The notes below the pieces were generated by a model. It had not been told where the DNA came from. It saw only the letters and a list, made by a program, of their open reading frames with translations, and searched no databases. From Candidatus Moraniibacteriota bacterium (GTDB taxonomy: Bacteria; Patescibacteriota; Minisyncoccia; Moranbacterales; UBA1568), in NCBI GenBank assembly GCA_052035095.1, contig JBPOHW010000005.1:30269-94268 (forward strand): DNA of 64,000 nt. Reading direction: 5' to 3'. Within the stretch, counting starts at the first letter, position 1, and every line of letters begins with the position of its first letter. Below, in pieces: positions 7,556-44,381 of this stretch. Made by a program: the position numbers and the translations under genes.

Positions 7556-8965
7556 CTACAATTCCTCCGCAATCTTGAGGAGGAGTCGCACCGGCGCGCC
7601 GGCGGCGCCCTTCCCGAGGTACTCGCCTTCGACAGCGGTCATCCGCGGCGCCATATCGATATGCGCCCACATATAGTCGGTCGCGAATTGCGCGAGAAAC
7701 GCCGCCGCCGTGATGGCGCCGCCCCACCTGGTCCGTCCGATATTTGCCACGTCGCCAAACGTCCCCTTCACTTCCTCGTCATATTCTTCCCACAAAGGGA
7801 GCGGCCACACATAGTCACCAGACATTTCTCCAAGCTCGCGCAGTTTGGTTTCGAGCGCCTGGTCGCGCGTAAAAATCGCCGAGGCGCGCTCGCCAAGCGC
7901 CACGAGCGAGGCACCCGTCAGGGTCGCCACATCAATGACGAGCCTCGGCGCGTAGCGCTTGGCATAGTGGAGGGCGTCCGCGAGAATAATCCGCCCCTCG
8001 GCATCGGTATTCAAGACTTCGATCGTCTTCCCGCTCATCGAGCGGAGGACATCTCCCGGTCGATAGCTCGACCCGGACGGCATATTCTCGACCGCGGGCA
8101 CGAGCGCCACGAGATTTTTTTTCACCCCGAGGCGCGCCACGAGAGAGAGCGTATGAATCACCGCGGCGCCCCCGGACATATCCATATTCATTCCGAGTAT
8201 CGCGTCCGACGGTTTCAAGTTGATGCCGCCCGTATCAAACGTGACCCCCTTCCCGACAAACACCATCGGCGCTTCATTTTTCTTACCTCCTTGATATTCC
8301 ATGATGATAAACTTCGGCGGAATCTCCGATCCCTTCCCGACTCCCAAGATGCCTCCCATCTTGAGCTTTTTCATATCGGCTTCCTCGAGAATTTTCACGC
8401 GAATATGCTTTCCCTTCGCGACACGACGCGCCTCATCCGCGAGCGTTTGCGGCGTCACGTCACCTCCGGGCAGATTCGCGAGCCGCCGGCAGGCATTCAC
8501 TTCTTCACCGATGATTCGCCCGCGCTCCACGCCGTCTCGAAACGATTTCGACGCCCCGAGAATCGCGACATTCTCAACAAATGCAAATCCCTCCGGCGGT
8601 TTTGTCAAAAATTCCGTAAACTGAAAATTCGCCATCTCGAAATTGGTCGCGAGAATTTCGCCGAGGTTTCGATCGGATATGTCGAGATCCGAAAAATGGA
8701 AATCCGCCACATTAACAACGACGTTCTTCGCCCGCTTCGTCTTCGCGCGCGCGATCGCGCGCCGCGCAAGCAGGATGAGCTTCCTCCGCGTCATTTTTTC
8801 GGACTCCGAAACCCCGAGAAGTATTTCCACTCCGCCCGCATCATTCCTCACTACCTCATCTTCTTTCGCCCTCGCAATTCGTATCCGAACGCCTCCCGCA
8901 TTCTTCGTTTCCTCTTTCGGAAATACATATTTCATAGACTTCACACTAAAGAATATGGACTGCAA
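7556..8965 (-). CDS. pepA: Leucyl aminopeptidase (M17 family, PepA)
   Basis: NTDAEGRIILADAL M17 signature, plus VGKGVTFDTGG and surrounding catalytic-domain conservation. Confidence 0.85.
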   Translation of the reverse strand: MQSIFFSVKSMKYVFPKEETKNAGGVRIRIARAKEDEVVRNDAGGVEILLGVSESEKMTRRKLILLARRAIARAKTKRAKNVVVNVADFHFSDLDISDRNLGEILATNFEMANFQFTEFLTKPPEGFAFVENVAILGASKSFRDGVERGRIIGEEVNACRRLANLPGGDVTPQTLADEARRVAKGKHIRVKILEEADMKKLKMGGILGVGKGSEIPPKFIIMEYQGGKKNEAPMVFVGKGVTFDTGGINLKPSDAILGMNMDMSGGAAVIHTLSLVARLGVKKNLVALVPAVENMPSGSSYRPGDVLRSMSGKTIEVLNTDAEGRIILADALHYAKRYAPRLVIDVATLTGASLVALGERASAIFTRDQALETKLRELGEMSGDYVWPLPLWEEYDEEVKGTFGDVANIGRTRWGGAITAAAFLAQFATDYMWAHIDMAPRMTAVEGEYLGKGAAGAPVRLLLKIAEEL

Positions 8966-23490: not shown

Positions 23491-23640
23491 AAGCAGACAA
23501 CCTTACAGATTACCCCCTCCCCCAGCCCGACCAGTATACACCAAAAACCGCTCCGGAAACACCGGGACGGTTTCTCAAAATATGCAAGGAAATCACAACC
23601 ACCCCAACCATCTACAATTTGTAGACAATTGGGAAGTCCC

Positions 23641-27302: not shown

Positions 27303-28469
27303 TCACGAAACTGTCTTTTTATGAAAACATATTTTCTCATATGAAGCAAGAAGGCTTCTCGCGCTCTGTTCCCACGAAAAGAAACGTGCCCGAACAAGTC
27401 CCTTTTGGATAAGCGTCTCGCGAATCGATCCGGAAAGGCACGCCGTTCGAAGCGCGGCGGAAAACGCCTCCGCATCATCCGTCGAGACAAATAGTGCCGC
27501 GTCCCCTCCCGCCTCCCGAAGCGCCGGGATATCCGAAGCGACGACCGGTACATCTTGACTCATCGCTTCGAGTATCGGGATGCCGAATCCTTCATAGCGC
27601 GAAGGAAATATGAAGGCTCTGGCAAAAGCAAAAACCCATGGGAGATCCTGCTGATCGACAAATCCCGGAAACACCACCGCAGACTCGAGGTCAAGGCACC
27701 GCAGTGCCTCGTCAATCTCAGGATCACTATGGTGCCCCGTTCGATTCCCCACCAAAACCAGTCCGAGCTCGGAATCTTCCGCTCGAATTTGAGCAAACGC
27801 CTTAAGGAGAGCGGGAATGTTTTTTCGCGGTTGAAGCGTCCCGACATACAAGAGAAATGTTTTCGGCAGATGATATTTCTTCCGAATCGACTCGCGACTT
27901 TCCGAGTCCATCGCGCGCTCTTCAAAAAATTCCGGAGCCACCGCATTGTACACGACCGATATTTTCTCTTTCAGGTCGCCATAATACCGAATAATTTCTT
28001 GTTTGGTAAATTCCGACGGCGCAACAATGAGATCGGCGCGCCGGAGACTGTGAGGAATGAGCATGTTCAAGAACAGTCGATCGAGAGGCGCGATATACTC
28101 CGGAAACGCGCAAAAGGAAACGTCATGAATATGCGTCACCACTTTTGTCCTTTTCGGCACAAAAAACGGCACGATATATTGCGTGTGATAGATATCAATC
28201 GCGTTTTTTCGGAGATATCGCGGCACATACCACACATTCCAGTCGAATTTGTTGTTCGCCGGAAGCGTCACGAAACGAACATTCTTTCTCCCGACAATAC
28301 CAAGGCGCTTTTCGATATCGCGAAGCGCCTCATCGGACCGCTCTTCAAGAAACAAAAAGTATTCATTCTCCGAATCCAACTTCACCAACTCGCGAACGAG
28401 ATTCAAAAACACCACCTCGTCCCCGGTGCGTCGCTTCCCGATATTTCGAATGTCAATGCCAATGTTCAT
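27303..28469 (-). CDS. Glycosyltransferase family 1 (GT4-type)
   Basis: EGFGIPILEAMSQDVPVVASD motif. Confidence 0.8.
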   Translation of the reverse strand: MNIGIDIRNIGKRRTGDEVVFLNLVRELVKLDSENEYFLFLEERSDEALRDIEKRLGIVGRKNVRFVTLPANNKFDWNVWYVPRYLRKNAIDIYHTQYIVPFFVPKRTKVVTHIHDVSFCAFPEYIAPLDRLFLNMLIPHSLRRADLIVAPSEFTKQEIIRYYGDLKEKISVVYNAVAPEFFEERAMDSESRESIRKKYHLPKTFLLYVGTLQPRKNIPALLKAFAQIRAEDSELGLVLVGNRTGHHSDPEIDEALRCLDLESAVVFPGFVDQQDLPWVFAFARAFIFPSRYEGFGIPILEAMSQDVPVVASDIPALREAGGDAALFVSTDDAEAFSAALRTACLSGSIRETLIQKGLVRARFFSWEQSARSLLASYEKICFHKKTVS

Positions 28470-28537: not shown

Positions 28538-28690
28538 CAACCACCCTACCCTTCGGGCACCCCTCCACCGGAGGGGAATTTTTTGCGCATTCATTCCCCT
28601 CCGGTGGAGGGGCGAGGGGGTGGTAGCTCTCCGGTGGAGGGGGTAGGGGGTGGTAACTCTGCGATGAAGGCAGTGGCTCCCCATTTCTCA
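28538..28690. repeat. G/C-rich palindromic + tandem 30-bp repeat block (copy A of 3), left boundary of AT-rich island
   Basis: CCCTTCGGGCACCCCTCCACCGGAGGGGAAT...ATTCCCCTCCGGTGGAGGGG inverted repeat, followed by tandem CCGGTGGAGGGG(C/G)(G/T)AGGGGGTGGTA(G/A)CTCT units. The same architecture recurs at 31118-31300 and 31738-31935. Confidence 0.7.
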
Positions 28691-28696
28691 TGCCGA

Positions 28697-31056
28697 TTAC
28701 TTTTGCAGTTCCGCCATGTTTACCGATCGCTTGCTGATTTTGATCATTTCCTCGTCGTGTGAAACACAAATTATCGTAGTGTCCGGATATTTCTCGTTTA
28801 TCTCACTGATAATTTTCCTTACTTCGGTTGCAGCTTGCGAATCGAGGCTTGCCGTCGGTTCATCAAGCAACATGATCTTTGCCCCTTTAACCAAAGTGCG
28901 CGCTACGCCAATCCTTACCCTCTCACCTCCCGATAAATTTTTTACTTCTTCGTCGAGTCTGCCAATAAATTTTTCCAAATGCAAATCTTCCAATACTTTC
29001 TTTATTTTTTCATAGCTTATTTCTTCTTTCGACCACAGCAAAATATTTTCACGCAATGTCATTTCATCAAAAATTTGCGGATTTTGGTTGCAGTAAGACA
29101 TGACTGAATAGATCGATTTTTTGCCGTATTTTTTTATGTTGTCATTCTTAACTCCGCCTATTTCTATTTCACCGCCACCCGGCTTATATAGACCAACTAA
29201 ATTTCGGAGCAGTGTCGATTTTCCAATTCCAGATGCTCCCGATATAGCCAAGAATTCTCCCTGCTTAATATTCATGCTTATACCGCGCAAAATATTTTTA
29301 TAGCGAAGATTTTTTATAGAAATATCAAAATTTTCCAATTCGGAAATCGGTACGCGTTCCTTTTCTTTTTCACCTTCCGGCAAATCCAGTTTTTCGTATT
29401 TTCCAAAAATTTCGTCCATCCGTTGTATATCCTGAATATAACGAGAAAATCTATTGAAATAAAGACTTACCAATTCTTGAACCGGGTAATTTAGCATGCC
29501 AGAATAAGTGATATTTGACAAAATAGCTCCACCGGAAATCATGCCGACCGCTTGAAGCGCGCCACCTACGCCAGCCGCCACGACGGTTGAAACATCAAAA
29601 GGAATCCTCCTTATCAAATCCATCTTCGTTTCTTCGACAAATCTCCCCAACGAAAGAGTATCTATTCTGTCCATCTGCCTTTTTACATCGGCGGCAATGA
29701 TCGGCGTTTCAGACGAAGTTTTAATTTCTTCAAATCCACTCTTTATCGATCCGAGACGCGTCTCTATTTTTCCCCCTCTCGTCTTTCTTTTTCATACATC
29801 GGCCAGACTTCATTATTCTGTTTTTTCGCGACTCTATACATAACAGGCAGGCTTCCAGCGCCAATTGCACCAAGAACAGGATTTATTTTCATCAAAAATG
29901 CGAGAGACATGGCTATTCCCGCTAAAGTCGGAGCAAATTCTGAAAGAGTGTCTCGTAAAATTCCCTCTGTCGCGTTTTTGCCCCTTTCCAAAGTCGCATA
30001 AATTTCGCCCAATGGTTTTTCGTGTATAAATTCAAATTCTTGAAAAAACAACGAATTGGTTATCCGTTCGTTAATTTGATGATTAATTTCATTCATCACC
30101 TTAGCCAGTTCGATTTTACTCTTCGCATCAATAAGCACTGATACCTTGTTGAGTCCGAGAAATTCCAAAAACACGGCGACATTGAACCTATCTTGCACGA
30201 TTATGTCTTGAAATAATGACGGGGCGAAACTTTCCAAACCTTTTGACGCTAAATGTCCAAGAGAAATTTTTGCTATCGCTCCTTTTTTCTCACCCAACTC
30301 ATACTCGTTCCAAAGCCGCGTGATTGTTTCAACGAGAACTCTCGGCGAATAATTTTCATCCTCGCCTTTGTCAGATCGTATAAGATCTACTAAAATTTCA
30401 ACCTCAACCTTGTCCAATGGATATCGATTTTGTAGGTCTTTTACCAACTCGGCTTTTTGTTTTCGTTGTTCCTTTTCGTCGATCTCGCCGTCTTCATCAA
30501 TCATTTTGTCCTTGTAAAAATCAGCGATATCTTTTTCCAACGACTTTGTGTTCATCACGTTCCCGATTGAATCAAAAAGCAGCCAGCATTGAGCACGTAA
30601 TTCTTCAGTATCTTCTTCAGTAAGAGATGATTCTCTTTTGTTTCGTATCTCGCTGACTAGATTCTCAATCCAGTCTTCAATAGCGCAGGAAAACTCTTCA
30701 CTATTAACATTAACAAATTCTCTGTGCGGATGCTCTTCTGATTTTTTGGCTTTCTCGTTAAAACCCTTCAAGATTTGTTTGTATTCGGTCACCAGTTCTG
30801 GCGCGATGAGTTCGCTCAACAACTTCATTTTTTCTTGTTCCTCCAAGGTCGGTTTTTCAACAGAGATCTTCTCTTGGATTGATAAACGTAAAGACAACCA
30901 ATGATCCTTGAGCGTCATCGGTCTTCCCTCTGTTTCGTCATGTTCTTCAAGAGTAAGCGGTTCCGCTTTTGCAGATTCTTTCTCTCGCTCAATTTCTCCT
31001 TTGATTGGCCTAAAAAAATCACTTTCTTTCATAGTTGTGAAACATAAAACAACCAC
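28697..31056 (-). pseudogene. Atypical ABC exporter (N-terminal ~330-aa charged domain + partial TMD + NBD) interrupted by a frameshift at a G5A5 homopolymer run (~29765-29792)
   Basis: The downstream ORF has TMD helices 5-6 plus an NBD (Walker A ISGASGIGKST, signature LSGGERVRIG, Walker B IMLLDEPTASLD). The upstream ORF (29764..31056) ends in a TMD segment homologous to ABC-exporter ICL1/TM3-4. The downstream frame stays open back to 29792 and overlaps the upstream stop (29764-29766). A single-base indel in GAGGGGGAAAAA would fuse them. Confidence 0.5.
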
Positions 31057-31117
31057 CCCACCCCTTGAGAACTATTTCATACAGGAAGTTATCATCCCAC
31101 ACTTTAAACACTCCTCC

Positions 31118-31300
31118 ATGCGAGAGACCACCCCACCCTTCGGGCACCCCTCCACCGGAGGGGAATCATCCCCGTTCCAATTCCCCTCCGGTGGAGGGGG
31201 TAGGGGGTGGTAGTTCTCTAGCAGAGGGGGTAGGGAGTGGTTTAATAGGCGAGGGGGTGGTAGCTCTGCGGTAGAGGGAACAATAAGCGTTAGCCCCCTC
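31118..31300. repeat. G/C-rich palindromic + tandem repeat block (copy B)
   Basis: Same core as 28538-28690: CCACCCCACCCTTCGGGCACCCCTCCACCGGAGGGGAATCATCCCCGTTCCAATTCCCCTCCGGTGGAGGGGGTAGGGGGTGGTAGTTCTCT, followed by degenerate tandem units. Confidence 0.7.
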
Positions 31301-31307
31301 TGTAAGA

Positions 31308-31673
31308 TCATACCTTCCCATTTTGAAACGCCGAATGTTTCCCGAGCCATTCCATAACATTCGGGAGATTTTTTTTCACCTCCCAATCATCGATATGAAT
31401 AACGGTAAGACCGAGTCCCTCAAGAAACAAATCCCGTTCTCGGTCGTATTCTTGTTTGTCATCATGGCTACTCCCATCAATTTCTATAACCACCATTGCG
31501 TTAGAACAAAAGAAATCGACGATGTAGTGTCCGATAATTTTCTGCCGATCAAAATCGAGCCCCCTGAATTGACCATTTCTTATCTGTTGCCAAAAGAGCA
31601 CCTCTGAAAGATTTCCCGATTTTCTCAATTCTCTCGCGCGTTCTTTGAGTTTCGGATTGTAAGGAAGGGACAT
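31308..31673 (-). CDS. DUF559-type (Vsr/PD-(D/E)xK-like) endonuclease-domain protein
   Basis: MSLPYNPKLKERARELRKSGNLSEVLFWQQIR...IIGHYIVDFFCSNAMVVIEIDGSSHDDKQEYDRERDLFLEGLGLTVIHIDDWEV is the classic DUF559 sequence pattern. The ORF-track N-terminal extension is translation of the repeat block. Confidence 0.7.
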   Translation of the reverse strand: MSLPYNPKLKERARELRKSGNLSEVLFWQQIRNGQFRGLDFDRQKIIGHYIVDFFCSNAMVVIEIDGSSHDDKQEYDRERDLFLEGLGLTVIHIDDWEVKKNLPNVMEWLGKHSAFQNGKV

Positions 31674-31737
31674 GAAGTTTCGCGTATGACGAAAAACTAT
31701 CACGTCTTTCGGGCACTCATCAATACGAGAGACCACT

Positions 31738-31935
31738 CCACTCTTTGGGTGCCCCTCCATACGGGAAGGTACCACCCCGCCCTTCGGGCACCCCTCCACC
31801 GGAGGGGAATCATCCCCGCTCCAATTCCCCTCCGGTGGAGGGGCAAGGGGGTGGTAACTCTCCGGTGAAGGGGCAAGGGGGTGGTTGTCCCGTGTTGGAG
31901 GGGGTAGGGGGTGGTAGCTCTGTAGTGAAGAAGCG
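31738..31935. repeat. G/C-rich palindromic + tandem repeat block (copy C), right boundary of AT-rich island
   Basis: CCACCCCGCCCTTCGGGCACCCCTCCACCGGAGGGGAATCATCCCCGCTCCAATTCCCCTCCGGTGGAGGGGCAAGGGGGTGGTAACTCT, then at least three tandem 30-bp units. Confidence 0.7.
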
Positions 31936-32068
31936 ATTCGACAAAATCGAGGGGATACCATATTCCGAAGTTCATACGAATCAACCGTAAAATCAATCCA
32001 TCCACCTCTTCATCTTATCCTATTTTTCTTCGTGTCTCAATGCGGAAAGAATTTTATCACAATTCTTC

Positions 32069-32608
32069 TCACCTCCGTCCGACATTCGTTCGTTCAAAGA
32101 GATCGAGATATCGCTCAAAAATCATAGTGAGATGAAACATCGCTACGAAAAGCAGCAAAGAAAAAAGCATCGACCATGGAATCGCCGACCAATTCATATC
32201 GGAAACATACGAAAGAAACATCGAAACATCACGCGCACGAAAAGAAAGAAAAAGAACATCGGTCATCCGCGCGAAAAATTCAAACACCCACACGCCGATA
32301 CCGAAGAGAAAAAGTCGTTCCATCCTGTATCCGAACAAAAATTGTCGCGCCATCAAACCAAACACGGCTGAGGCGAGCGCCAGTTCAAAAGAAGCGCCTC
32401 CAATCCTCGAAAAAACGATTGAGTCAAGAAAGACGCCACCGACGACTGCCCATTTCCACGAAAACGCGAATCCCTTGAGAAGGGTGAGCGATACAATGAC
32501 TGAAAGAAATATCGGGGGCGGAAACTGCGGGAAAAGTACCGTGAAAAACGACGCATCCGCAATTGCGGCAGAGACGAGAAATGCGCTGCGAAAGAGGATC
32601 GGTTTCAT
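32069..32608 (-). CDS. mreD: Rod shape-determining protein MreD (putative)
   Basis: 179-aa polytopic membrane protein immediately downstream of and overlapping mreC. Position and size fit MreD; sequence similarity is weak. Confidence 0.55.
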   Translation of the reverse strand: MKPILFRSAFLVSAAIADASFFTVLFPQFPPPIFLSVIVSLTLLKGFAFSWKWAVVGGVFLDSIVFSRIGGASFELALASAVFGLMARQFLFGYRMERLFLFGIGVWVFEFFARMTDVLFLSFRARDVSMFLSYVSDMNWSAIPWSMLFSLLLFVAMFHLTMIFERYLDLFERTNVGRR

Positions 32609-33420: not shown

Positions 33421-33577
33421 GAAGAAGAAAGATAAAAGAAAATTCCAAATCCAAAATCACAATTTCCAAATAAGCACCAAATCACAAACATAAAACGAAG
33501 TAGGTAAGACCATTTTGAACATTGAGATTTGAATTTTATTTGGAACTTACAATTTTTAATTTGATAGTTTATCCCCT

Positions 33578-34687
33578 CTATCGGAGGGGGGTCCCTCGTT
33601 GGTCCTCGACCAGCACTTCCTTAAGCCGCTCCATATCTTCGAGGACAACGCCCGTACCGCGTACCACCGCAGTCAAAGGATCCTCCATCATACGGACGGG
33701 AATGCCGGTTTGATTGGCGAGAAATCGATCAAACCCGCGAATCATACTTCCGCCGCCCGCCAGAATAATGCCCCGCTGAAAAATATCAGAAAGAAGTTCG
33801 GGCGGCGTTTCCTCTATAATCGTCTTGATGTTATTGACAATAATGCGGATCGAATGCGAAAGCGCCTCGCGAATATGTTCGTCGGTCGCGATGATCTCTT
33901 TGGGCAATCCGCTCACCAAATCGCGTCCGCGTATGGGATAGGTCATCGGCTCTCGAAGCGTATAGGCGCTCCCGATGGAAATTTTCACTTCTTCAGCGGT
34001 CTTTTCCCCGATAAGAAGATTGAATGAATCTCGCGCGTACCGGACGATGTCCTCGTTCATTTCGTCACCCGCGATACGAAGACTCCGCGATACAACGACG
34101 CCGCCCAAAGAAATAACGGCAATCTCCGTCGTCCCGCCACCGATATCGACGACCATGTTGCCGGACGCCTCGATAACCGGGAGTCGCGCGCCAATCGCCG
34201 CCGCCATCGGCTCGTCGATGAGGAACGCTTCGCGCGCTCCGGCATTCATCGTCGCTTCAATGACCGCGCGCCGTTCCACTTCGGTCACTCCCGAGGGAAC
34301 TCCCACCAAAACGCGCGGTCGCCGCAAAAACGCAAGATTGGTATCATGCACTTTATTGATAAAAAACCGGAGCATTTGTTGGGTCACGTCGAAGTCGCTC
34401 ACGACACCATCAACCAAAGGTCGTGTCGCCACAATATGCCCGGGCGTCTTCCCTACCATACGTTTGGCATCGCGTCCGATCGCGAGAATTTGCCCGGTCC
34501 GTTGATTCACCGCCACAACCGACGGCTCATTGATGACAATCCCCTTCCCGCGCACATAGACCAGCGTATTCGCCGTTCCCAAATCAATACCGATATCCTG
34601 CGAAAATCGCCCGAATACCATATCGGAAAATTGTTTCCGATACCGCCTGTATTGATGCGCAAATGAATTCGGTGAATGTGATTCCAT
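33578..34687 (-). CDS. mreB: Rod shape-determining protein MreB (actin homologue)
   Basis: IGIDLGTANTLVYVRGKGIVINEPSVVAV and downstream actin-fold motifs. The true start is probably the internal Met near 34621 (MVFGRFSQDIGIDLG). Confidence 0.9.
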   Translation of the reverse strand: MESHSPNSFAHQYRRYRKQFSDMVFGRFSQDIGIDLGTANTLVYVRGKGIVINEPSVVAVNQRTGQILAIGRDAKRMVGKTPGHIVATRPLVDGVVSDFDVTQQMLRFFINKVHDTNLAFLRRPRVLVGVPSGVTEVERRAVIEATMNAGAREAFLIDEPMAAAIGARLPVIEASGNMVVDIGGGTTEIAVISLGGVVVSRSLRIAGDEMNEDIVRYARDSFNLLIGEKTAEEVKISIGSAYTLREPMTYPIRGRDLVSGLPKEIIATDEHIREALSHSIRIIVNNIKTIIEETPPELLSDIFQRGIILAGGGSMIRGFDRFLANQTGIPVRMMEDPLTAVVRGTGVVLEDMERLKEVLVEDQRGTPLR

Positions 34688-34821
34688 ACAAACGCAAAAA
34701 AATCGGAAGAGTCATTCCTTCACCAAGACTACCAAGAAACCCCCCAAGGAGCAAGAAAATTCGCACGGGCAACACTTCCCGTGCGAATTTCAAAATCCAC
34801 GAAAAACTCAGTCTCCCGGCT

Positions 34822-36147
34822 TCACGGCGTGAGACGTTTGACGTCTCTCGGAAAGAGGACAGCCTGTTTGATGGTGGGAAGTCCCAAGAGTTGCTGAATG
34901 GTGCGCTCCGATCCCCAGCCCCACCCGCCGTGCGGCGGGCAACCATACCGAAAGGTGTCGAGATAATTCGAGAAATCCTCCGGATTCATCCCGCGCTTCT
35001 TGATCGACTCCACCATTTTTTTGTATTCATGAATACGCTGTCCGCCAGTCGCGAGTTCCAGCCCGCGAAAGAGGAGGTCGAAGCTTTCCGTAAAGTGCGG
35101 ATCGGCGCCCGGCAAAGTATAAAACGGCCGAATGGCGGTCGGATAATGCGTCAAGAAGACAAAATCCGATCCAAATTCGCGCTTCACATACTCGCAAATC
35201 ATCCGCTCGCCCTCGGGATCGATGTCGATTTCCCCGCCTTCCATTTTCTTCCCGAATTCTTTTTCAAGAATTTGAAGCGCTTCCGTCAGCTTCATGCGCG
35301 GGATAGCGACTCTTTTGGGAGCCTCGGCGCCCCACAATTCAAGCTCTTCTTTTCCTCGTTCGCCTATTTTTTCAAACACGTCAAAAATGATGCTTTCGAG
35401 CTCGTTCATCACGTCACCGACGCCTTCAATAAACGCCATCTCGGCATCAAGACTCACGTATTCGTTCACGTGGCGCGTCGTAAAGTGCGGCTCGGCGCGA
35501 AACACCGGTCCAATCTCGAAAACTCGCTCAAACACACTTGCCCCCGCCTCCTTATAAAATTGCGGACTCTGCGCGAGAAACGCATCGCGATCAAAATATT
35601 TGATCTTGAAAAAGTTGGCGCCGCCTTCGGTCGCGGCATTCACCACCTTTGGCGTCTTCACCTCGAGAAAACCGCGCGACCGAAGCGCGTCGGCATACGC
35701 GGATACCAGTATGCCATAAAGCCGAAAAATCGCCTGAACTTTTCGATTGCGGAGCGAAAAAATGCGATTGTTGAGAAGTGTATCAAGATGAAGTTCCTCA
35801 AGACCGCCCTCAGCTATTTCAAATGGGAGCGGACTTTCGGGAGCGGAAAGAATGATGAGTTCTTCAACTTCCACTTCGATACTCCCCAGGGTATCGGCGC
35901 GCTCGGCGCCACCCGGACGAGATTTCACCACACCGATCGCCTCGATGATACACTCATTCCGGCACTCGCGCGCCGCCTCATACGCCGCGCTATGATCGGG
36001 TATTACCACCAGTTGAACCGTACCGCTTCGATCGCGAACATCGAGAAATAAAATTTTCCCGTGGTCGCGACGCATATTCACCCATCCTTTCAGGCGAACC
36101 CGTTCCCCTTTCGCACGCAACGCTTCGACAATCAGTGTTCGTTCCAT
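34822..36147 (-). CDS. aspS: Aspartyl-tRNA synthetase, archaeal/eukaryal type (AspRS2-like; possibly non-discriminating)
   Basis: 441 aa with an N-terminal OB fold, FLEVKTPKVVNAATEGGANFFKIKYFDRDAFLAQSPQFYKE (the ATEGGA motif is typical of archaeal-type AspRS, versus SDCEGAGE in AsnRS), FRAE motif 2 and GGWGWGSER motif 3. Confidence 0.7.
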   Translation of the reverse strand: MERTLIVEALRAKGERVRLKGWVNMRRDHGKILFLDVRDRSGTVQLVVIPDHSAAYEAARECRNECIIEAIGVVKSRPGGAERADTLGSIEVEVEELIILSAPESPLPFEIAEGGLEELHLDTLLNNRIFSLRNRKVQAIFRLYGILVSAYADALRSRGFLEVKTPKVVNAATEGGANFFKIKYFDRDAFLAQSPQFYKEAGASVFERVFEIGPVFRAEPHFTTRHVNEYVSLDAEMAFIEGVGDVMNELESIIFDVFEKIGERGKEELELWGAEAPKRVAIPRMKLTEALQILEKEFGKKMEGGEIDIDPEGERMICEYVKREFGSDFVFLTHYPTAIRPFYTLPGADPHFTESFDLLFRGLELATGGQRIHEYKKMVESIKKRGMNPEDFSNYLDTFRYGCPPHGGWGWGSERTIQQLLGLPTIKQAVLFPRDVKRLTP

Positions 36148-40983: not shown

Positions 40984-42393
40984 CTATTTCTTTCGCTTCT
41001 CAATCCAAACCTGTCGTAGCGTTTCATCGGATAACTCGCTCGGAGCGCCCATAAGCAAATCTTTTGCCTCGCCTGTTTTTGGAAATGCGATTACTTCACG
41101 AATACTTTCTTCACCAAGAATAGTAGAGATAAGCCGATCCATTCCAAGCCCCGTTCCAGCGTGCGGTGGAACCCCAAGAGAAAATGCACGAAGTATATGA
41201 CCAAATTTATTCTGTATTTCCTCTTCCCTAAGTCCGATCGACTCAAATATGGTTTTTTGTAGCCCTGCATCATGTATACGAACACTGCCAGAACTAATTT
41301 CATACCCATTCAGAACAAGATCAAACGCCGTGGAACGAACCGAGAGCGGATCGCTTTTTATTCGAGATATATCTTCGTCGAGCGGCATGGTAAATGGGTG
41401 ATGCGCGGATGAAATTCCAGTCTTCGAAGTGCTATCTTCTTCAAAAAGCGGAAACTCCGTCACCCAACAAAATGCCAACGTGTCACTATCTTTTTTCTCT
41501 CGCATATCCGGTTTGTCACACCCATAATTCTTCATAGAATCCGCATAGGTCATTTTTGGAAACGGCGTAGAAAGAATTTTCTTGTTCGGAAATATCTTCG
41601 AAACAAGCGCTATCATAGAATCCTCAACCATTTTCATCACATCACCCTCATCAACAAAAGACATCTCAATGTCAAATTGAGTAAATTCCGGCTGACGATC
41701 CTGTCGCTGATCCTCATCTCGAAAGCACCGTGCCACCTGAAAATATTTCCCCATACCGGAGACCATGAGAAGTTGTTTGAACTGTTGTGGAGATTGCGGA
41801 AGAACATAAAACTGTCCATGATGAATTCTCGAAGGAACGATAAATTCTCGAGCACCCTCCGGAGTTCCCTTAGTAAGGATAGGTGTCTCCACCTCACAAA
41901 ATCCATTCTCGCTGTAGTAATTCCGAAGAAAGAGCATTGTTTCATGGCGAGACCGGATATTTCTTTGCATTCGATCCGATCGGAGATCAAGATATCGGTG
42001 TTTCATGCGAAGAGACTCGTCTATCGCATTCGTGTCATCGTCAACGGAAAATGGAAGCGCTGTCGCAGGCGAAAAAATATGAAGAGTTTCAGCGACAAGT
42101 TCTCTGTCACCGAGAGGCTGATTTGGATTTATGAGATTTTTTTGTCGCTCAACGACGGTTCCGGAAACTTGTATGACCGACTCGAGGGAAATCTTCTTTA
42201 TTTGTTCAAATGTTTCTCCGGTACACACAACCTGAATTTTCCCCGAAGGGTCACGAAGATCACAAAAAGCAACCTTTCCGTGCAGTCGGAGGTTGTGTAC
42301 CCACCCAGAAAGAATAGTCTTTTTTCCGACACGTTCCCGACTCTCAGCTATAGAGCAATCATTCTTTCTATAGGTTTTCATAATGGTTTCCAT
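40984..42393 (-). CDS. aspS: Aspartyl-tRNA synthetase, bacterial type lacking the GAD insertion domain
   Basis: 469 aa with an N-terminal OB fold, RYLDLR, QSPQQFKQLLMVSG, FRDEDQRQDRQPEFTQFDIEMSF (motif 2), bacterial-specific LAFCWVTEFPLFEE and AHHPFTMP, GGSVRIHD and GLGMDRL (motif 3). There is no roughly 100-aa GAD domain. Its start overlaps the stop of the upstream fusion gene. Confidence 0.8.
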   Translation of the reverse strand: METIMKTYRKNDCSIAESRERVGKKTILSGWVHNLRLHGKVAFCDLRDPSGKIQVVCTGETFEQIKKISLESVIQVSGTVVERQKNLINPNQPLGDRELVAETLHIFSPATALPFSVDDDTNAIDESLRMKHRYLDLRSDRMQRNIRSRHETMLFLRNYYSENGFCEVETPILTKGTPEGAREFIVPSRIHHGQFYVLPQSPQQFKQLLMVSGMGKYFQVARCFRDEDQRQDRQPEFTQFDIEMSFVDEGDVMKMVEDSMIALVSKIFPNKKILSTPFPKMTYADSMKNYGCDKPDMREKKDSDTLAFCWVTEFPLFEEDSTSKTGISSAHHPFTMPLDEDISRIKSDPLSVRSTAFDLVLNGYEISSGSVRIHDAGLQKTIFESIGLREEEIQNKFGHILRAFSLGVPPHAGTGLGMDRLISTILGEESIREVIAFPKTGEAKDLLMGAPSELSDETLRQVWIEKRKK

Positions 42394-44381
42394 TAAGGAA
42401 TAATATGTGTCTGGCTTCTTGGAAATAGAACTACGTCTTCAACGGTATTATACCCAAGTAATTTCGCAACAACCCGATCAATTCCAAGACAAAAACCGCC
42501 GTGCGAAACCGGCGTCTTGAAGTAATCGAGATAAAACTGAAAGTTTTCAGGATTTACTCCTGACATCTTCATTCTTTCAACAATACGAGAAGCATCGGTT
42601 TCTCGTACGGCGCCAGAACAAATTTCCCAGCCCCTATAAATAATATCAAAGGACTCTGTATAGTGCTCGTCCACCTCTTTCGTATAAAACTTTTTCGTGA
42701 GATTCGGATAATGAACAATCGCAAAAATATCCCAGCTACGATTTTCTTTTAAGAAATTTGCCAATTCGTATTCCCTGCTATAACCAAGATCATCCCCGTA
42801 CGAATATTCAGTATCAACATGAGCTGTCACTATCTCAAATACCTCGTCATAACTTATGGATTGTATTTCCTTCGCAATAACATTTTCTTGCGCAATAAGT
42901 TGCCCTTCCAATAATCTCTCCGAGGAAAAATTCAGTATTTCTCCAGCAACAGCAAGTAGAGCATTGATTCCTTCATTTTTCTTCAGTTGCATTTCAACAT
43001 CAAGCCCCCATGCTTCTGATAAATGCCTTGCAGTAGGACTCGTCTCCTCACGCCAAAATGGTCCATACTCAAAAACGCGCCTCATCCCAGACAGAACAAG
43101 CATTTGCTTATACATCTGATTAGACTGTCGCAAAAAAAGTTTTCTTTCATACCATTGAACAGAGAACAATTCCTCACTTGCATTGTTTCTCGGTGGGTCA
43201 GTTGATATTGGTACTACATACGGAGTATGCACTTCCGTATAAACCTCCTTTTCTTGCAGATAATCTCGGAAGCCCTTTTCAAAAACGCTTCTCAAAAAAG
43301 CAACGTGCGCTAAATTTTTATTGAGCCTCTTCTTGCTCAATTCTAAGTTTAAGCCGACCTCCACACTTATCAACTCTTTTTCTATAGCACGATACACCTC
43401 ACCGACACGTTCTCTTATAATCTCATTTGCCTTTTCAATTTGAGCAACTCGATCCCTATATCGTTGAGCAGTCAGTTTTTTTATGGTCGCTATTGAATAG
43501 ATAGACGCGCTTTTGTTCAAAGATGCAAGCAAAATCGTATTCTGAGGGTTTCCAACATCGATAATTTTTGGTATATGGAACAACTTATTTATTTTCTCTG
43601 ACTCTTCATAAGAAAGAACATCCGAAAGACAGAAGAAAACGGCATCGTACTCGCCTATTTTATCGAGATACTCACTAAATTCGACTCTGGCTCTTGCCAC
43701 TCCGGTTTCAACCAATTTATTTGCTCGAGACTCTGTCCTATTTGTAACATCAATAGATTCAAAACCTTTTTCATGTAAAACATGTGCAATGAGGCTCCCC
43801 ATAGCTCCACATCCGACAATCAGAATGCACTGAGACTGATCGCCATTTACATTTTGAAGCAACTCAACCGCTTGTCGACCGACTGAAACGTTTCCAATCC
43901 CTATCATTGTTTGTTCTTTTACGGAAAGCGCTACTCTTTTGGCTGAACGAAAAAGAACCTCCATTACCGGACCAGAGGCTTTAAATTTTTTACTGCTCGT
44001 CAAAGCAAATCGAACCTGTCCAAGTACTTGACCATCCCCAATGGTCACGCTCTTTAATCCGGAAGACACTTGCAAGAGATGCTCGACACATTTGTATTCA
44101 CGGTAAAGGGCGATGTCAGATCCGCCGAAGCCATCTGGAGAGATACTAACTAATCTCCACGTTTTTACAATTTTTTCCAAATCAAAAACCCCCCAGACAA
44201 AAATCTCCGTGCAATTACATTTTTGCAAAATGACTACCTCCTCTACACAGGGGAGTTTCTTAAATTCACTATATCCCCGCGAAATATCTTTAATATTACA
44301 GGCATTGACGATATCCTGAGTGTTATTATTTAGACTTATTGAAATACAATAAAGGTCTCTTTTTTGCAAAGTTTTCCCCAT
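42393..44381 (-). CDS. Fusion protein: glutamyl-tRNA reductase (HemA/GluTR)-like N-terminal half + class IIb aminoacyl-tRNA-synthetase-like catalytic core (AspRS/AsnRS/AsnA-type, no anticodon-binding domain)
   Basis: N-half: VVILQKCNCTEIFVW (GluTR catalytic-Cys motif TCNRTELY, with Arg replaced by Cys), VEHLLQVSSGLKSVTIGDGQVLGQVRFAL (versus GluTR [23 protein letters not shown]), ILIVGCGAMGSLIAHVL...NRTESRANKLV (NADPH Rossmann domain, versus LLVGAGET...ANRTRERAQ) and KIIDVGNPQN (versus DIAVPRD). C-half: EVHTPYVV...RQSNQMYKQMLVLSG, YGPFWREETSPTARHLSEAWGLDVEM (motif 2), SFDIIYRGWEICSGAVRE and GGFCLGIDRVVAKLLG (motif 3). Confidence 0.7.
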   Translation of the reverse strand: MGKTLQKRDLYCISISLNNNTQDIVNACNIKDISRGYSEFKKLPCVEEVVILQKCNCTEIFVWGVFDLEKIVKTWRLVSISPDGFGGSDIALYREYKCVEHLLQVSSGLKSVTIGDGQVLGQVRFALTSSKKFKASGPVMEVLFRSAKRVALSVKEQTMIGIGNVSVGRQAVELLQNVNGDQSQCILIVGCGAMGSLIAHVLHEKGFESIDVTNRTESRANKLVETGVARARVEFSEYLDKIGEYDAVFFCLSDVLSYEESEKINKLFHIPKIIDVGNPQNTILLASLNKSASIYSIATIKKLTAQRYRDRVAQIEKANEIIRERVGEVYRAIEKELISVEVGLNLELSKKRLNKNLAHVAFLRSVFEKGFRDYLQEKEVYTEVHTPYVVPISTDPPRNNASEELFSVQWYERKLFLRQSNQMYKQMLVLSGMRRVFEYGPFWREETSPTARHLSEAWGLDVEMQLKKNEGINALLAVAGEILNFSSERLLEGQLIAQENVIAKEIQSISYDEVFEIVTAHVDTEYSYGDDLGYSREYELANFLKENRSWDIFAIVHYPNLTKKFYTKEVDEHYTESFDIIYRGWEICSGAVRETDASRIVERMKMSGVNPENFQFYLDYFKTPVSHGGFCLGIDRVVAKLLGYNTVEDVVLFPRSQTHIIP

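Follow-up and report, generated by a model that had tools for sequence, protein, structure and literature searches.

A strain-variable island in a Candidatus Moraniibacteriota genome combines a putative DUF559 endonuclease gene with palindromic repeat units found across bacterial phyla

Introduction

What placed three long palindromic repeat blocks, a small nuclease-like gene and a broken transporter gene between two backbone genes of a Candidatus Moraniibacteriota bacterium? The locus lies in a 64,000-nucleotide stretch of contig JBPOHW010000005.1 (hereafter the window), where an island at about 28540-32024 separates mreD from the gene for a GT4/GT1 glycosyltransferase (GT4). It contains a gene of the DUF559 family and a frameshifted ATP-binding cassette (ABC) exporter gene. 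An earlier reading of the same DNA (the original prediction) had taken the repeats for the borders of a cassette with two cargo genes at a mobile or recombination-prone insertion hot spot. We find that the island is a strain-variable insertion, that its repeats belong to a family dispersed over many bacterial phyla, and that this family is tightly linked to one of the two genes, that for DUF559. The island is, in our judgement, probably a horizontally acquired selfish element made up of a gene for a putative endonuclease of Vsr-type fold (DUF559) and its own repeat units of about 42 nt.

Results

Three repeat blocks at a single locus

Within the 64 kb, the repeats are confined to this one locus, where they form three blocks (Table 1). 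The 20-mer CCCCTCCACCGGAGGGGAAT occurs six times in the window, always inside a block and as two inverted arms in each (28560/28593, 31147/31180 and 31791/31824), against an expectation of 0 from 100 shuffles, and all seven window matches to AGGGGGTGGTA likewise fall within the blocks (0.27 expected). The arms of every block are perfect, 20 nt long and separated by a 13-nt spacer, and the predicted block hairpins have energies of -37 to -45 kcal/mol with DNA parameters. Read along the plus strand, a block opens with ACCACCC(C/T) and a small hairpin, CCCTTCGGG, continues through the first arm, the spacer and the inverted arm ATTCCCCTCCGGTGGAGGGG, and ends in two to three units of about 30 nt with the form (CTCCGGTGGAGGGG)nnA(GGGGGTGGT)AnCT. 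A repeat finder resolved the same DNA into a 116-nt unit present three times (83-88% identical) and a tandem unit of about 30 nt present seven times, and Tandem Repeats Finder reported a period of 30 at 28599-28660 (2.1 copies) and 31830-31921 (3.1 copies). A block is made up of an inverted doublet together with partial units in tandem. By their sequence, the 30-nt tandem units are L-type units (see below) that lack the hairpin, and such units can be recognised at other loci too.

In the direction of the genes, the locus reads mreD-[LLL.13.R]-DUF559-[LLL.13.R]-ABC pseudogene-[LL.13.R]-GT4, where L and R are the two unit types and 13 is the spacer. The original prediction was therefore accurate as to layout: blocks with inverted arms and tandem units do bracket a frameshifted ABC exporter gene (PF00005) and a DUF559 gene (PF04480) between the glycosyltransferase gene and mreD. 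It was also right that the gene bodies are richer in AT than the backbone: GC makes up 42% of DUF559 and 39-40% of the ABC gene, compared with 49% of the whole window and 63-66% of the blocks. Nor is this a CRISPR array, as it had recognised, because the blocks stand 0.6 and 2.6 kb apart with genes between them and the units within a block are contiguous. Its suggestion that the G-rich units form G-quadruplexes was not borne out. No block contains a canonical motif (four tracts of at least three G, loops of 1-7 nt), and long hairpins dominate the prediction; when quadruplexes were allowed, ViennaRNA proposed only two-layer quartets beside the main hairpin, an output that is untrustworthy with DNA parameters.

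The rest of the window holds no other DUF559 copy and no other repeat unit, except for a core-like hairpin, CCCCTCCGATAGAGGGG, at the mreB stop codon. This hairpin is present in one strain that lacks the island (L001) and was not found in another (L262). It may represent either a unit in decay or a terminator-like hairpin of separate origin, and its membership of the repeat family is uncertain.

The island is a strain-variable insertion

Contigs of relatives were recovered by exact-protein look-ups. In six of them (L001/L263, L262, L264, L265, L266 and L268), from at least five samples, the junction between mreD and GT4 is empty: the flanks are 95-99% identical to those of the window, GT4 follows about 100 nt after mreD, and there is no repeat unit. 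L262 is a 234-kb contig, and no unit occurs in the 19.2 kb of it that were read. Contigs from SRR10398024, on the other hand, match the window with 100% identity and end within the repeats. An intermediate allele is found in contig L009 (SRR34217542), which carries DUF559 and block 2 followed directly by the block 1 flank and GT4, with the ABC gene absent; the ABC protein is not on record for this sample. Its crossover lies inside a 32-nt stretch of the R unit, ATTCCCCTCCGGTGGAGGGGTGCCCGAAGGGT, that is common to blocks 2 and 1.

The locus thus has at least three allelic states. The island is a strain-variable insertion, and the repeats apparently mediate gain and loss of the adjacent ABC gene: the position of the L009 crossover within the shared 32-nt stretch indicates that the units act as recombination substrates. 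Both the insertion and its proneness to recombination had been anticipated in the original prediction.

The units form a cross-phylum family

Across genomes, the unit is about 42 nt long and consists of ACCACCCC(G), a hairpin that is variable in sequence and length, (C)A, the palindrome CCCCTCC-NNN-GGAGGGG and then AAT. Searching one genome per species in GTDB for an exact 20-mer gave more than 120 sites in at least 120 stretches of 8 kb each. The isolates among the matches listed include Chryseobacterium, Pedobacter albus, Advenella and a complete genome of Ottowia caeni. The metagenome-assembled genomes (MAGs) listed include Balneolaceae, Planctomycetaceae (Planctomycetota), Clostridia, Desulfobulbaceae, Rickettsiales, Cyanobacteria, Cloacimonadota, Saccharibacteria, Thermotogaceae and others, several of which contribute many loci each. 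The idea that the repeats mark the boundaries of a cassette therefore survives only in part. They do stand at the island, but they are neither specific to this locus nor tied to AT-rich inserts, and instead make up a dispersed family.

Units occur singly, as inverted doublets and in tandem arrays, and lie inside long open reading frames (ORFs) in only 7% of cases compared with 48% of random positions. By reading, all six frames of the unit are free of stop codons. A search of Rfam at gathering and E-value thresholds returned only generic hairpin (microRNA) models far below cut-off. We also considered and rejected carriage by phages, since only 39 stretches match even a looser pattern among 2.9 million viral contigs.

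The variable hairpin is the most informative part of the unit as to its structure. Its 109 distinct segments fold with a mean of -6.5 kcal/mol, compared with -2.4 kcal/mol when shuffled, and the stem contains pairs of all four types (CG, GC, AT and TA), with 92-100% pairing at positions 3-7. Shuffling the 3' halves from unit to unit lowers the paired fraction from 0.80 to 0.51 +/- 0.02, and RNAalifold finds three pairs in the unit with 7-19 double changes each. To judge from these comparisons, the hairpin keeps its pairing by compensatory change. Wobble pairs are equally rare on the two strands (GT+TG 17, AC+CA 18), with neither strand favoured, which suggests that the structure matters at the level of DNA, or is needed on both strands, rather than in an RNA copied from one strand.

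In four betaproteobacterial-type genomes (L027, L098, L125 and L129), the internal spacer of inverted doublets, about 42 nt long, is conserved from one genome to another (…GCCTCACTCGT…GCAGTCGG…). These doublets look like a defined derivative of about 135 nt, resembling a miniature inverted-repeat transposable element (MITE).

The unit family is linked to one DUF559 subfamily

We clustered the ORFs within 600 nt of units in the 120 listed stretches, and DUF559 was the sole family to recur, at nine loci. The linkage was then examined in reverse, with 80 metagenome loci that carry the closest relatives of the window protein (57-76% identical) and are not a sample of all DUF559 genes. A core hairpin lies within 400 nt of DUF559 in 73 of these loci and on both sides of it in 55, and its density near the gene is 15 times that elsewhere in the same loci. 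The order R-gene-L is stereotyped in distance and orientation: the R-type unit (ATTCCCCTCC..GGAGGGG-TG-hairpin-CGGGGTGGT) lies 50-125 nt before DUF559, and the L-type unit, in reverse orientation, starts 5-50 nt after it. The gene even runs into the repeat, in that the start of the L unit, ACCACCCCGCCCTT, encodes the conserved C-terminal HPAL/HPAF of the protein, and database gene calls for DUF559 often extend into repeat-encoded peptides. These counts show that the unit family is tightly linked to this DUF559 subfamily. The window copy, with an inverted unit on each side, has the flanks that are standard for its homologues. In a plasmid collection, we found only distant DUF559 relatives (35-45% identical).

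The original prediction had treated DUF559 as merely one of two cargo genes, and this view has to be abandoned. DUF559 is the only family recurrently linked to the repeats, and homologues of the ABC exporter had no repeat units in the five contexts examined. Because its homologues lack units nearby, the ABC gene is probably not a regular cargo of the repeats.

DUF559 has a predicted Vsr-type fold

The window protein matches PF04480 with 105.3 bits (cut-off 20.6, E 2e-30) and, by sequence, PDB entry 3HRL (E 8e-16). An AlphaFold2 model was obtained with a mean predicted local confidence (pLDDT) of 86.7. In a Foldseek search with this model, 3HRL came first (E 5.6e-7) and the catalytic domain of the homing endonuclease I-Bth0305I (3R3P) second (probability 1.00; TM-score normalised to target length 0.75), with Vsr itself (1CW0) weaker. 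Residues D54, E65, D67, G68 and H71, all present in the window protein, are invariant in 40 homologues. The modelled DUF559 protein can accordingly be described as a putative endonuclease of Vsr-type fold. A published survey of PD-(D/E)XK proteins likewise places VSR, DUF559 and DUF2726 in one group (PMC3424549).

Just below the nucleases, the Foldseek list contains several mitoribosomal proteins of apicomplexans and ciliates (probability up to 1.00 for several; TM-score on query 0.44-0.65). These matches presumably contain RAP-type domains, in which case the Vsr-type fold would be capable of binding RNA as well.

The module is found embedded in frame in host genes

In 42 of the 80 metagenome loci, the DUF559 frame is open for at least 100 codons on both sides. 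By Pfam, the surrounding genes encode type I HsdR and HsdS, type ISP and Eco57I-like type IIG enzymes, N6/N4 methylases, type III methylases and, in one case, leucyl-tRNA synthetase (LeuRS). The hosts are therefore mostly restriction-modification genes, and include one essential aminoacyl-tRNA synthetase gene. Units read in frame encode linkers of about 14 residues (NSPPLEGWxxxGVV and NHPALxGTPPxEGN), and such insertions do not always include the nuclease. The LeuRS gene of L165 contains a solo L.R doublet in frame, type ISP genes contain solo units in frame, and one HsdR gene contains eight tandem 42-nt units, all in frame. Because the units are free of stop codons and rich in proline and glycine, a host protein would be able to tolerate them.

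The HsdR genes also indicate how recent such insertions may be. Here, the insert lies just before helicase motif I, and the HsdR of locus L170 has about 170 extra residues at this point compared with EcoR124I HsdR. All of the 120 closest L170 HsdR homologues listed (87-92% identical) lack the insert. In comparison with the DNA of two of them (L221 and L222), the insert occupies a variable loop of 11-13 residues, without target duplication. Taken together, these alignments show, at the level of sequence, a unit-DUF559-unit module that has apparently found its way into many unrelated genes, so recently that empty alleles still exist. The wider family is large, with 19,114 cluster representatives at E <= 1e-3 in an exhaustive library, and among the best 150 of these, about 58 reach a length of 250 aa or more and contain DUF559 internally.

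Two further observations concern these hosts. One representative (P0310, 520 aa) contains three separate DUF559 stretches, which suggests tandem or repeated insertion of the module in a single ORF. In addition, the uninterrupted HsdR gene of L221 has a perfect small palindrome of its own (AGAGACGTTGCATGCAACGTCTC, at about 1200-1260) in the loop where L170 carries the module; the HsdR variable loop may be a hot spot for palindromic inserts.

Discussion

A candidate selfish element

How might the components of the island work together? If it is a selfish element, the units would fold as DNA hairpins or cruciforms and would be the sites at which DUF559 nicks or cuts, or would otherwise be required for copying. 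The protein would drive that copying either by nicking the hairpins, as the transposase RAYT does at repetitive extragenic palindromes (REPs), or by cutting empty sites in the manner of a homing endonuclease; we infer this role in mobility by analogy with those systems. The ABC gene would have been caught between blocks as a passenger or neighbour, to come and go through recombination of directly repeated R units, and the solitary and doublet units elsewhere would represent non-autonomous copies. Going beyond this locus, we propose more tentatively, as something that may well turn out otherwise, that the DUF559 subfamily and its two-hairpin units of about 42 nt constitute an undescribed, cross-phylum class of mobile element. 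Such an element would use no transposase, intron or intein. Instead, a nuclease gene flanked by inverted units would spread, leave REP-like solo and doublet copies behind and insert in frame as a linker-domain-linker cassette. We found no published description of DUF559-associated repeats or in-frame DUF559 insertions; subscription journals lay outside the search, and a prior description is possible. The literature on 'DUF559' gave passing mentions only, and searches with unit sequence strings gave nothing relevant; a search by topic led only to the work on Vsr-like homing endonucleases (PMC2677866).

Comparison with known systems

The nearest parallel is provided by REPs and the doublets that they form (REPINs), which are short, GC-rich, mostly intergenic palindromes in many copies, and by RAYT, an IS200/IS605-like Y1 (HUH) transposase whose gene is flanked by inverted REPs. 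As in those systems (Nunvar, 2010; Bertels and Rainey, 2011), the units described here are GC-rich, palindromic, multi-copy and mainly extragenic, standing alone, in inverted pairs or in clusters; one small nuclease gene has inverted units on either side; and the hairpin varies between genomes beside a short conserved flanking motif. The differences are equally clear. The flanked gene encodes a protein of the PD-(D/E)XK or Vsr-type fold rather than an HUH Y1 transposase, long parts of the unit are identical across phyla, and the module is often in frame in coding genes. There is also no GTAG head: no tetranucleotide of this type stands at the 5' end of the palindrome, where the conserved flanks are ACCACCCC and AAT(T).

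A functional resemblance can be seen to the Rickettsia palindromic elements (RPEs), in that a palindromic repeat is found in frame in ORFs (here LeuRS and type ISP genes) as well as between genes. RPEs are not known to contain a gene or to occur outside Rickettsia. The repeats studied here differ from RPEs (the elements of Ogata, 2000) on both counts, since they flank a nuclease ORF and occur in many phyla.

The Vsr-like (EDxHD) homing endonucleases, such as I-Bth0305I, share the fold and a selfish way of life in conserved host genes or as stand-alone genes, with uninterrupted host alleles in existence. They are found in group I introns, in 'fractured' genes with split inteins and as stand-alone inserts (Dassa, 2009; PMC2677866). 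Filled and empty alleles at high identity, which are typical of homing, are seen here as well (L170 HsdR; the window against L001 and L262). Theirs, however, lie in introns, between split-intein halves or so as to split the host gene into two ORFs, whereas here the host frame reads through the repeat linkers and the nuclease, and many different host sites are used, which argues against a single long recognition site. Consistent with this difference, there was no Hint-domain signal by Pfam at the host loci and no intron signal by Rfam in the window.

MITEs such as the Correia elements of Neisseria are likewise small, non-coding and present in many copies per genome, with terminal inverted repeats, and some of the betaproteobacterial doublets with their conserved spacer come close to this form. 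Unlike MITEs, the units can also function as lone halves or in tandem arrays, no parent insertion sequence (IS) transposase was found for them, and neither of two comparisons of filled and empty sites, in both of which the flanks have diverged, revealed a target-site duplication.

Points against a selfish element and alternative explanations

Several points weigh against the interpretation of the island as a DUF559-driven selfish element. No clean junction or target-site duplication is visible in either filled/empty pair (window/L001 or HsdR), whose flanks have diverged; the insertion point in L001 is at about 8075-8080, and the empty spacer aligns only loosely with the two window flanks. The L009 contig comes from a short-read assembly with k=31, and a chimeric path through the 32-nt repeat is possible. 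We know of no nuclease activity, cleavage site or transposition intermediate for this DUF559 subfamily. With 122 aa, moreover, the protein amounts to the catalytic core alone, whereas I-Bth0305I has regions beyond its catalytic domain. The window DUF559 has no obvious ribosome-binding site at its ATG, and this copy may therefore be silent. We also count against the interpretation the choice of close relatives for the reverse test of linkage. The two remaining points concern the units themselves. No DUF559 lies nearby in 113 of the 120 listed unit-bearing stretches, which fits non-autonomous copies and equally fits units that spread independently of DUF559, and within one element the variable hairpin of the R unit need not be that of the L unit (L170), so the two are not simple copies of one terminus.

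These last two points also favour what we regard as the strongest of the alternatives, although still an unlikely one. Here, the units would be an independent REP- or MITE-like family, spread by another enzyme or by host replication and recombination, with DUF559 as a favoured landing site or hitch-hiker, and the island would be foreign DNA recombined in through units that serve as portable homology. That most listed unit sites have no DUF559 within 8 kb, that units occur solo, as doublets and in arrays, and that they acted as recombination substrates in L009 would all follow naturally. It is harder to see, on this account, why DUF559 should be their only recurrent neighbour, why R-DUF559-L should be fixed in distance and orientation, why the L unit should encode a conserved C-terminus of the protein or why the whole module should move into unrelated host genes. 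Neither a transposase nor an integrase turned up as a recurrent neighbour. The original prediction had looked to a recombinase or integrase that co-occurs with the repeats, and none is present among the ORFs scanned in the window (64 kb of the genome), which also gave no transposase match.

We attach less weight still to a domesticated role, which appears improbable. In this case, the module would equip restriction-modification enzymes with an accessory nuclease domain on flexible linkers, or would act as an on/off switch that inverts by means of the inverted repeats, and the window copy would be a stray free-standing version. For about half of the close homologues, the module is embedded in frame in a restriction-modification gene, and this, like the many long representatives with DUF559 internal, would suit the first form. 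As for the second, Milman et al. (2023) reported that 'DUF559 domain-containing protein' is enriched (odds ratio 14.3) among coding sequences with predicted programmed inversions (PMC9881135), an enrichment that is probably a side effect of the inverted units. We rejected an invertible switch because the module reads through on the same strand in 25 of 40 evaluable loci and is in the opposite orientation inside the host gene in none. A conserved accessory domain is contradicted by the heterogeneity of the hosts, which extend to LeuRS, by free-standing intergenic copies such as that in the window, and by the closest HsdR alleles listed, all of which lack the insert and so indicate a recent gain rather than a conserved architecture.

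An integron-like array seems highly improbable. The locus would then be a cluster of attC sites without an integrase, with the blocks as attC-type sites and DUF559 and the ABC gene as two cassettes. There is a superficial likeness in the alternation of palindromic sites with promoterless genes in one orientation, in the number of blocks (one more than the genes), in their form as imperfect palindromes and in the L009 variant, which lacks exactly one gene and one block. The scanned ORFs nevertheless include no integrase; the attC boxes RYYYAAC and GTTRRRY are, by reading, absent from the blocks; and Rfam finds no family beyond sub-threshold microRNA models. In these units, moreover, the sequence is conserved and not the structure only, most copies in other genomes are solitary and intergenic, the ABC homologues elsewhere have no flanking units, and a crossover within 32 nt of identity is what plain homologous recombination predicts. 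Just as improbable is a regulatory role for the host, in which the blocks would act between the genes of an operon as terminators, as hairpins that stabilise mRNA or as G-quadruplexes. The hairpins are indeed very stable, block 1 has one terminator-like match and the G-rich strand has many GG, GGGG and GGGGG tracts. However, the blocks are wholly absent at the locus in related strains, only block 1 has a T-run after its hairpin, a terminator scan gave 3 sites against 4.3 expected, no canonical quadruplex motif exists, and neither the cross-phylum identity nor the DUF559 linkage would be expected.

Implications

If the selfish-element interpretation is correct, it would provide a function for a large family that is still named as a domain of unknown function, and a PD-(D/E)XK-based counterpart of the REP/RAYT system. 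It would also account for a class of ORFs, spurious or too long (TTPPLRGTPPxEGN, NSPPLEGW..GVV), that recurs in the annotation of MAGs. A selfish element that prefers restriction-modification genes would bear on the evolution of defence systems. Near-identical units across phyla could serve as portable homology for gene exchange, of which the gain and loss of the ABC gene here is an illustration. In annotating genomes of the candidate phyla radiation, such islands would be marked as strain-variable foreign DNA.

Genes of the locus and further strain differences

The genes around the island are all on the minus strand and follow the order AspRS (aspartyl-tRNA synthetase), mreB, mreC, mreD, block 3, DUF559, block 2, the ABC exporter gene in two pieces, block 1, GT4, an LCP-family gene and an S41 peptidase gene (Table 1). 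The backbone is that of a Moranbacteria-like member of the Patescibacteria, to judge from the cluster of GalU proteins at 90% identity or more, which includes Candidatus Moranbacteria MAGs, and from the homologues of the ABC exporter. An ATG at 31961, in the non-repeat left end of the inserted DNA, opens a frame of 217 codons (ORF 31308-31961) that runs through block 3 into DUF559, and the last ten or so DUF559 codons (KHSAFQNGKV) resemble a decayed L-type unit.

Table 1. Positions of the repeat blocks, genes and related features in the window, listed in gene direction
Feature	Position	Strand	Remarks
Core-like solitary hairpin CCCCTCCGATAGAGGGG	33573-33589	-	Overlaps the mreB stop codon, with TAG in its loop
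mreD, upstream backbone flank of the island	32069-32608	-	Follows mreC (PF04085); identical protein on empty-site contigs
Non-repeat left end of inserted DNA (approximate)	31931-32024	-	Similarity to empty allele L001 lost after about 32025
Block 3	31771-31930	-	In gene direction: three hairpin-less L-type units 31930-31824, 13-nt spacer 31823-31811, R-type unit with CCCGAAGGG hairpin 31810-31771
Degenerate extra R-type unit, directly upstream of DUF559	31732-31770	-	31714-31759 is 83% identical to block 2 flank (repeat finder)
DUF559 (Vsr-like PD-(D/E)XK) putative endonuclease gene	31308-31676	-	PF04480, E 2e-30
Block 2	31127-31282	-	L-type units 31282-31180, 13-nt spacer 31179-31167, R-type unit with hairpin 31166-31127
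Partial R-unit end (GGGGTGGGGTGGT then TGTTT), just upstream of ABC start	31047-31072	-	Resembles block 1/GT4 junction; GGGGTGGT match at 31052
ABC exporter pseudogene	28697-31056	-	N-part 29764-31056 (likely start 31029); C-part with ATP-binding domain 28697-29674 (PF00005, E 1.6e-31)
Block 1	28540-28670	-	Two L-type units 28660-28593, 13-nt spacer 28592-28580, R-type unit with hairpin 28579-28540
GT4/GT1 glycosyltransferase gene, downstream backbone flank	27303-28469	-	PF00534, PF13439; adjoins mreD in empty alleles

A single frameshift near 29770-29790 would have to be undone for the ABC gene to be read through, and the same split recurs in contigs from two other samples (L211 and L212). 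Intact homologues of 703-736 aa all come from Patescibacteria. Homologues are often fragmented, and their neighbours are an rve-family transposase or glycosyltransferase clusters. This Patescibacteria-specific exporter family is often split or partial in databases (L213-L218, homologue P0128; P0143/P0145), and in one lineage its members lie directly downstream of an rve-family (IS-type) transposase in varying contexts.

The empty-site strains contain a second strain-variable island of 3.5 kb between AspRS and mreB (L001 1828-5390, L262 1532-5130), one operon from the DUF559 island and without repeat units, which is absent from the window (34688-34821). It carries a guanylate-kinase-like gene, a 466-aa ORF, a NUDIX gene and a 212-aa ORF, and ends in a duplicated AspRS 3' end (L001 4600-4635 resembles 1791-1827). 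A third difference between strains is a Bro-N domain gene between the Band_7 and CYTH genes (L262 12596-13420), absent in the window (gap 23491-23640). Finally, a 662-aa ORF elsewhere in the window (42393-44381, minus strand) fuses a GlutR_N domain and a Shikimate_DH-type NAD domain, resembling the N-terminus of glutamyl-tRNA reductase, to the catalytic domain of a class II aminoacyl-tRNA synthetase (tRNA-synt_2). It adjoins an AspRS-like gene of bacterial type (40984-42393), in addition to which a second AspRS, of the non-discriminating kind, is encoded in the window at 34822-36147.

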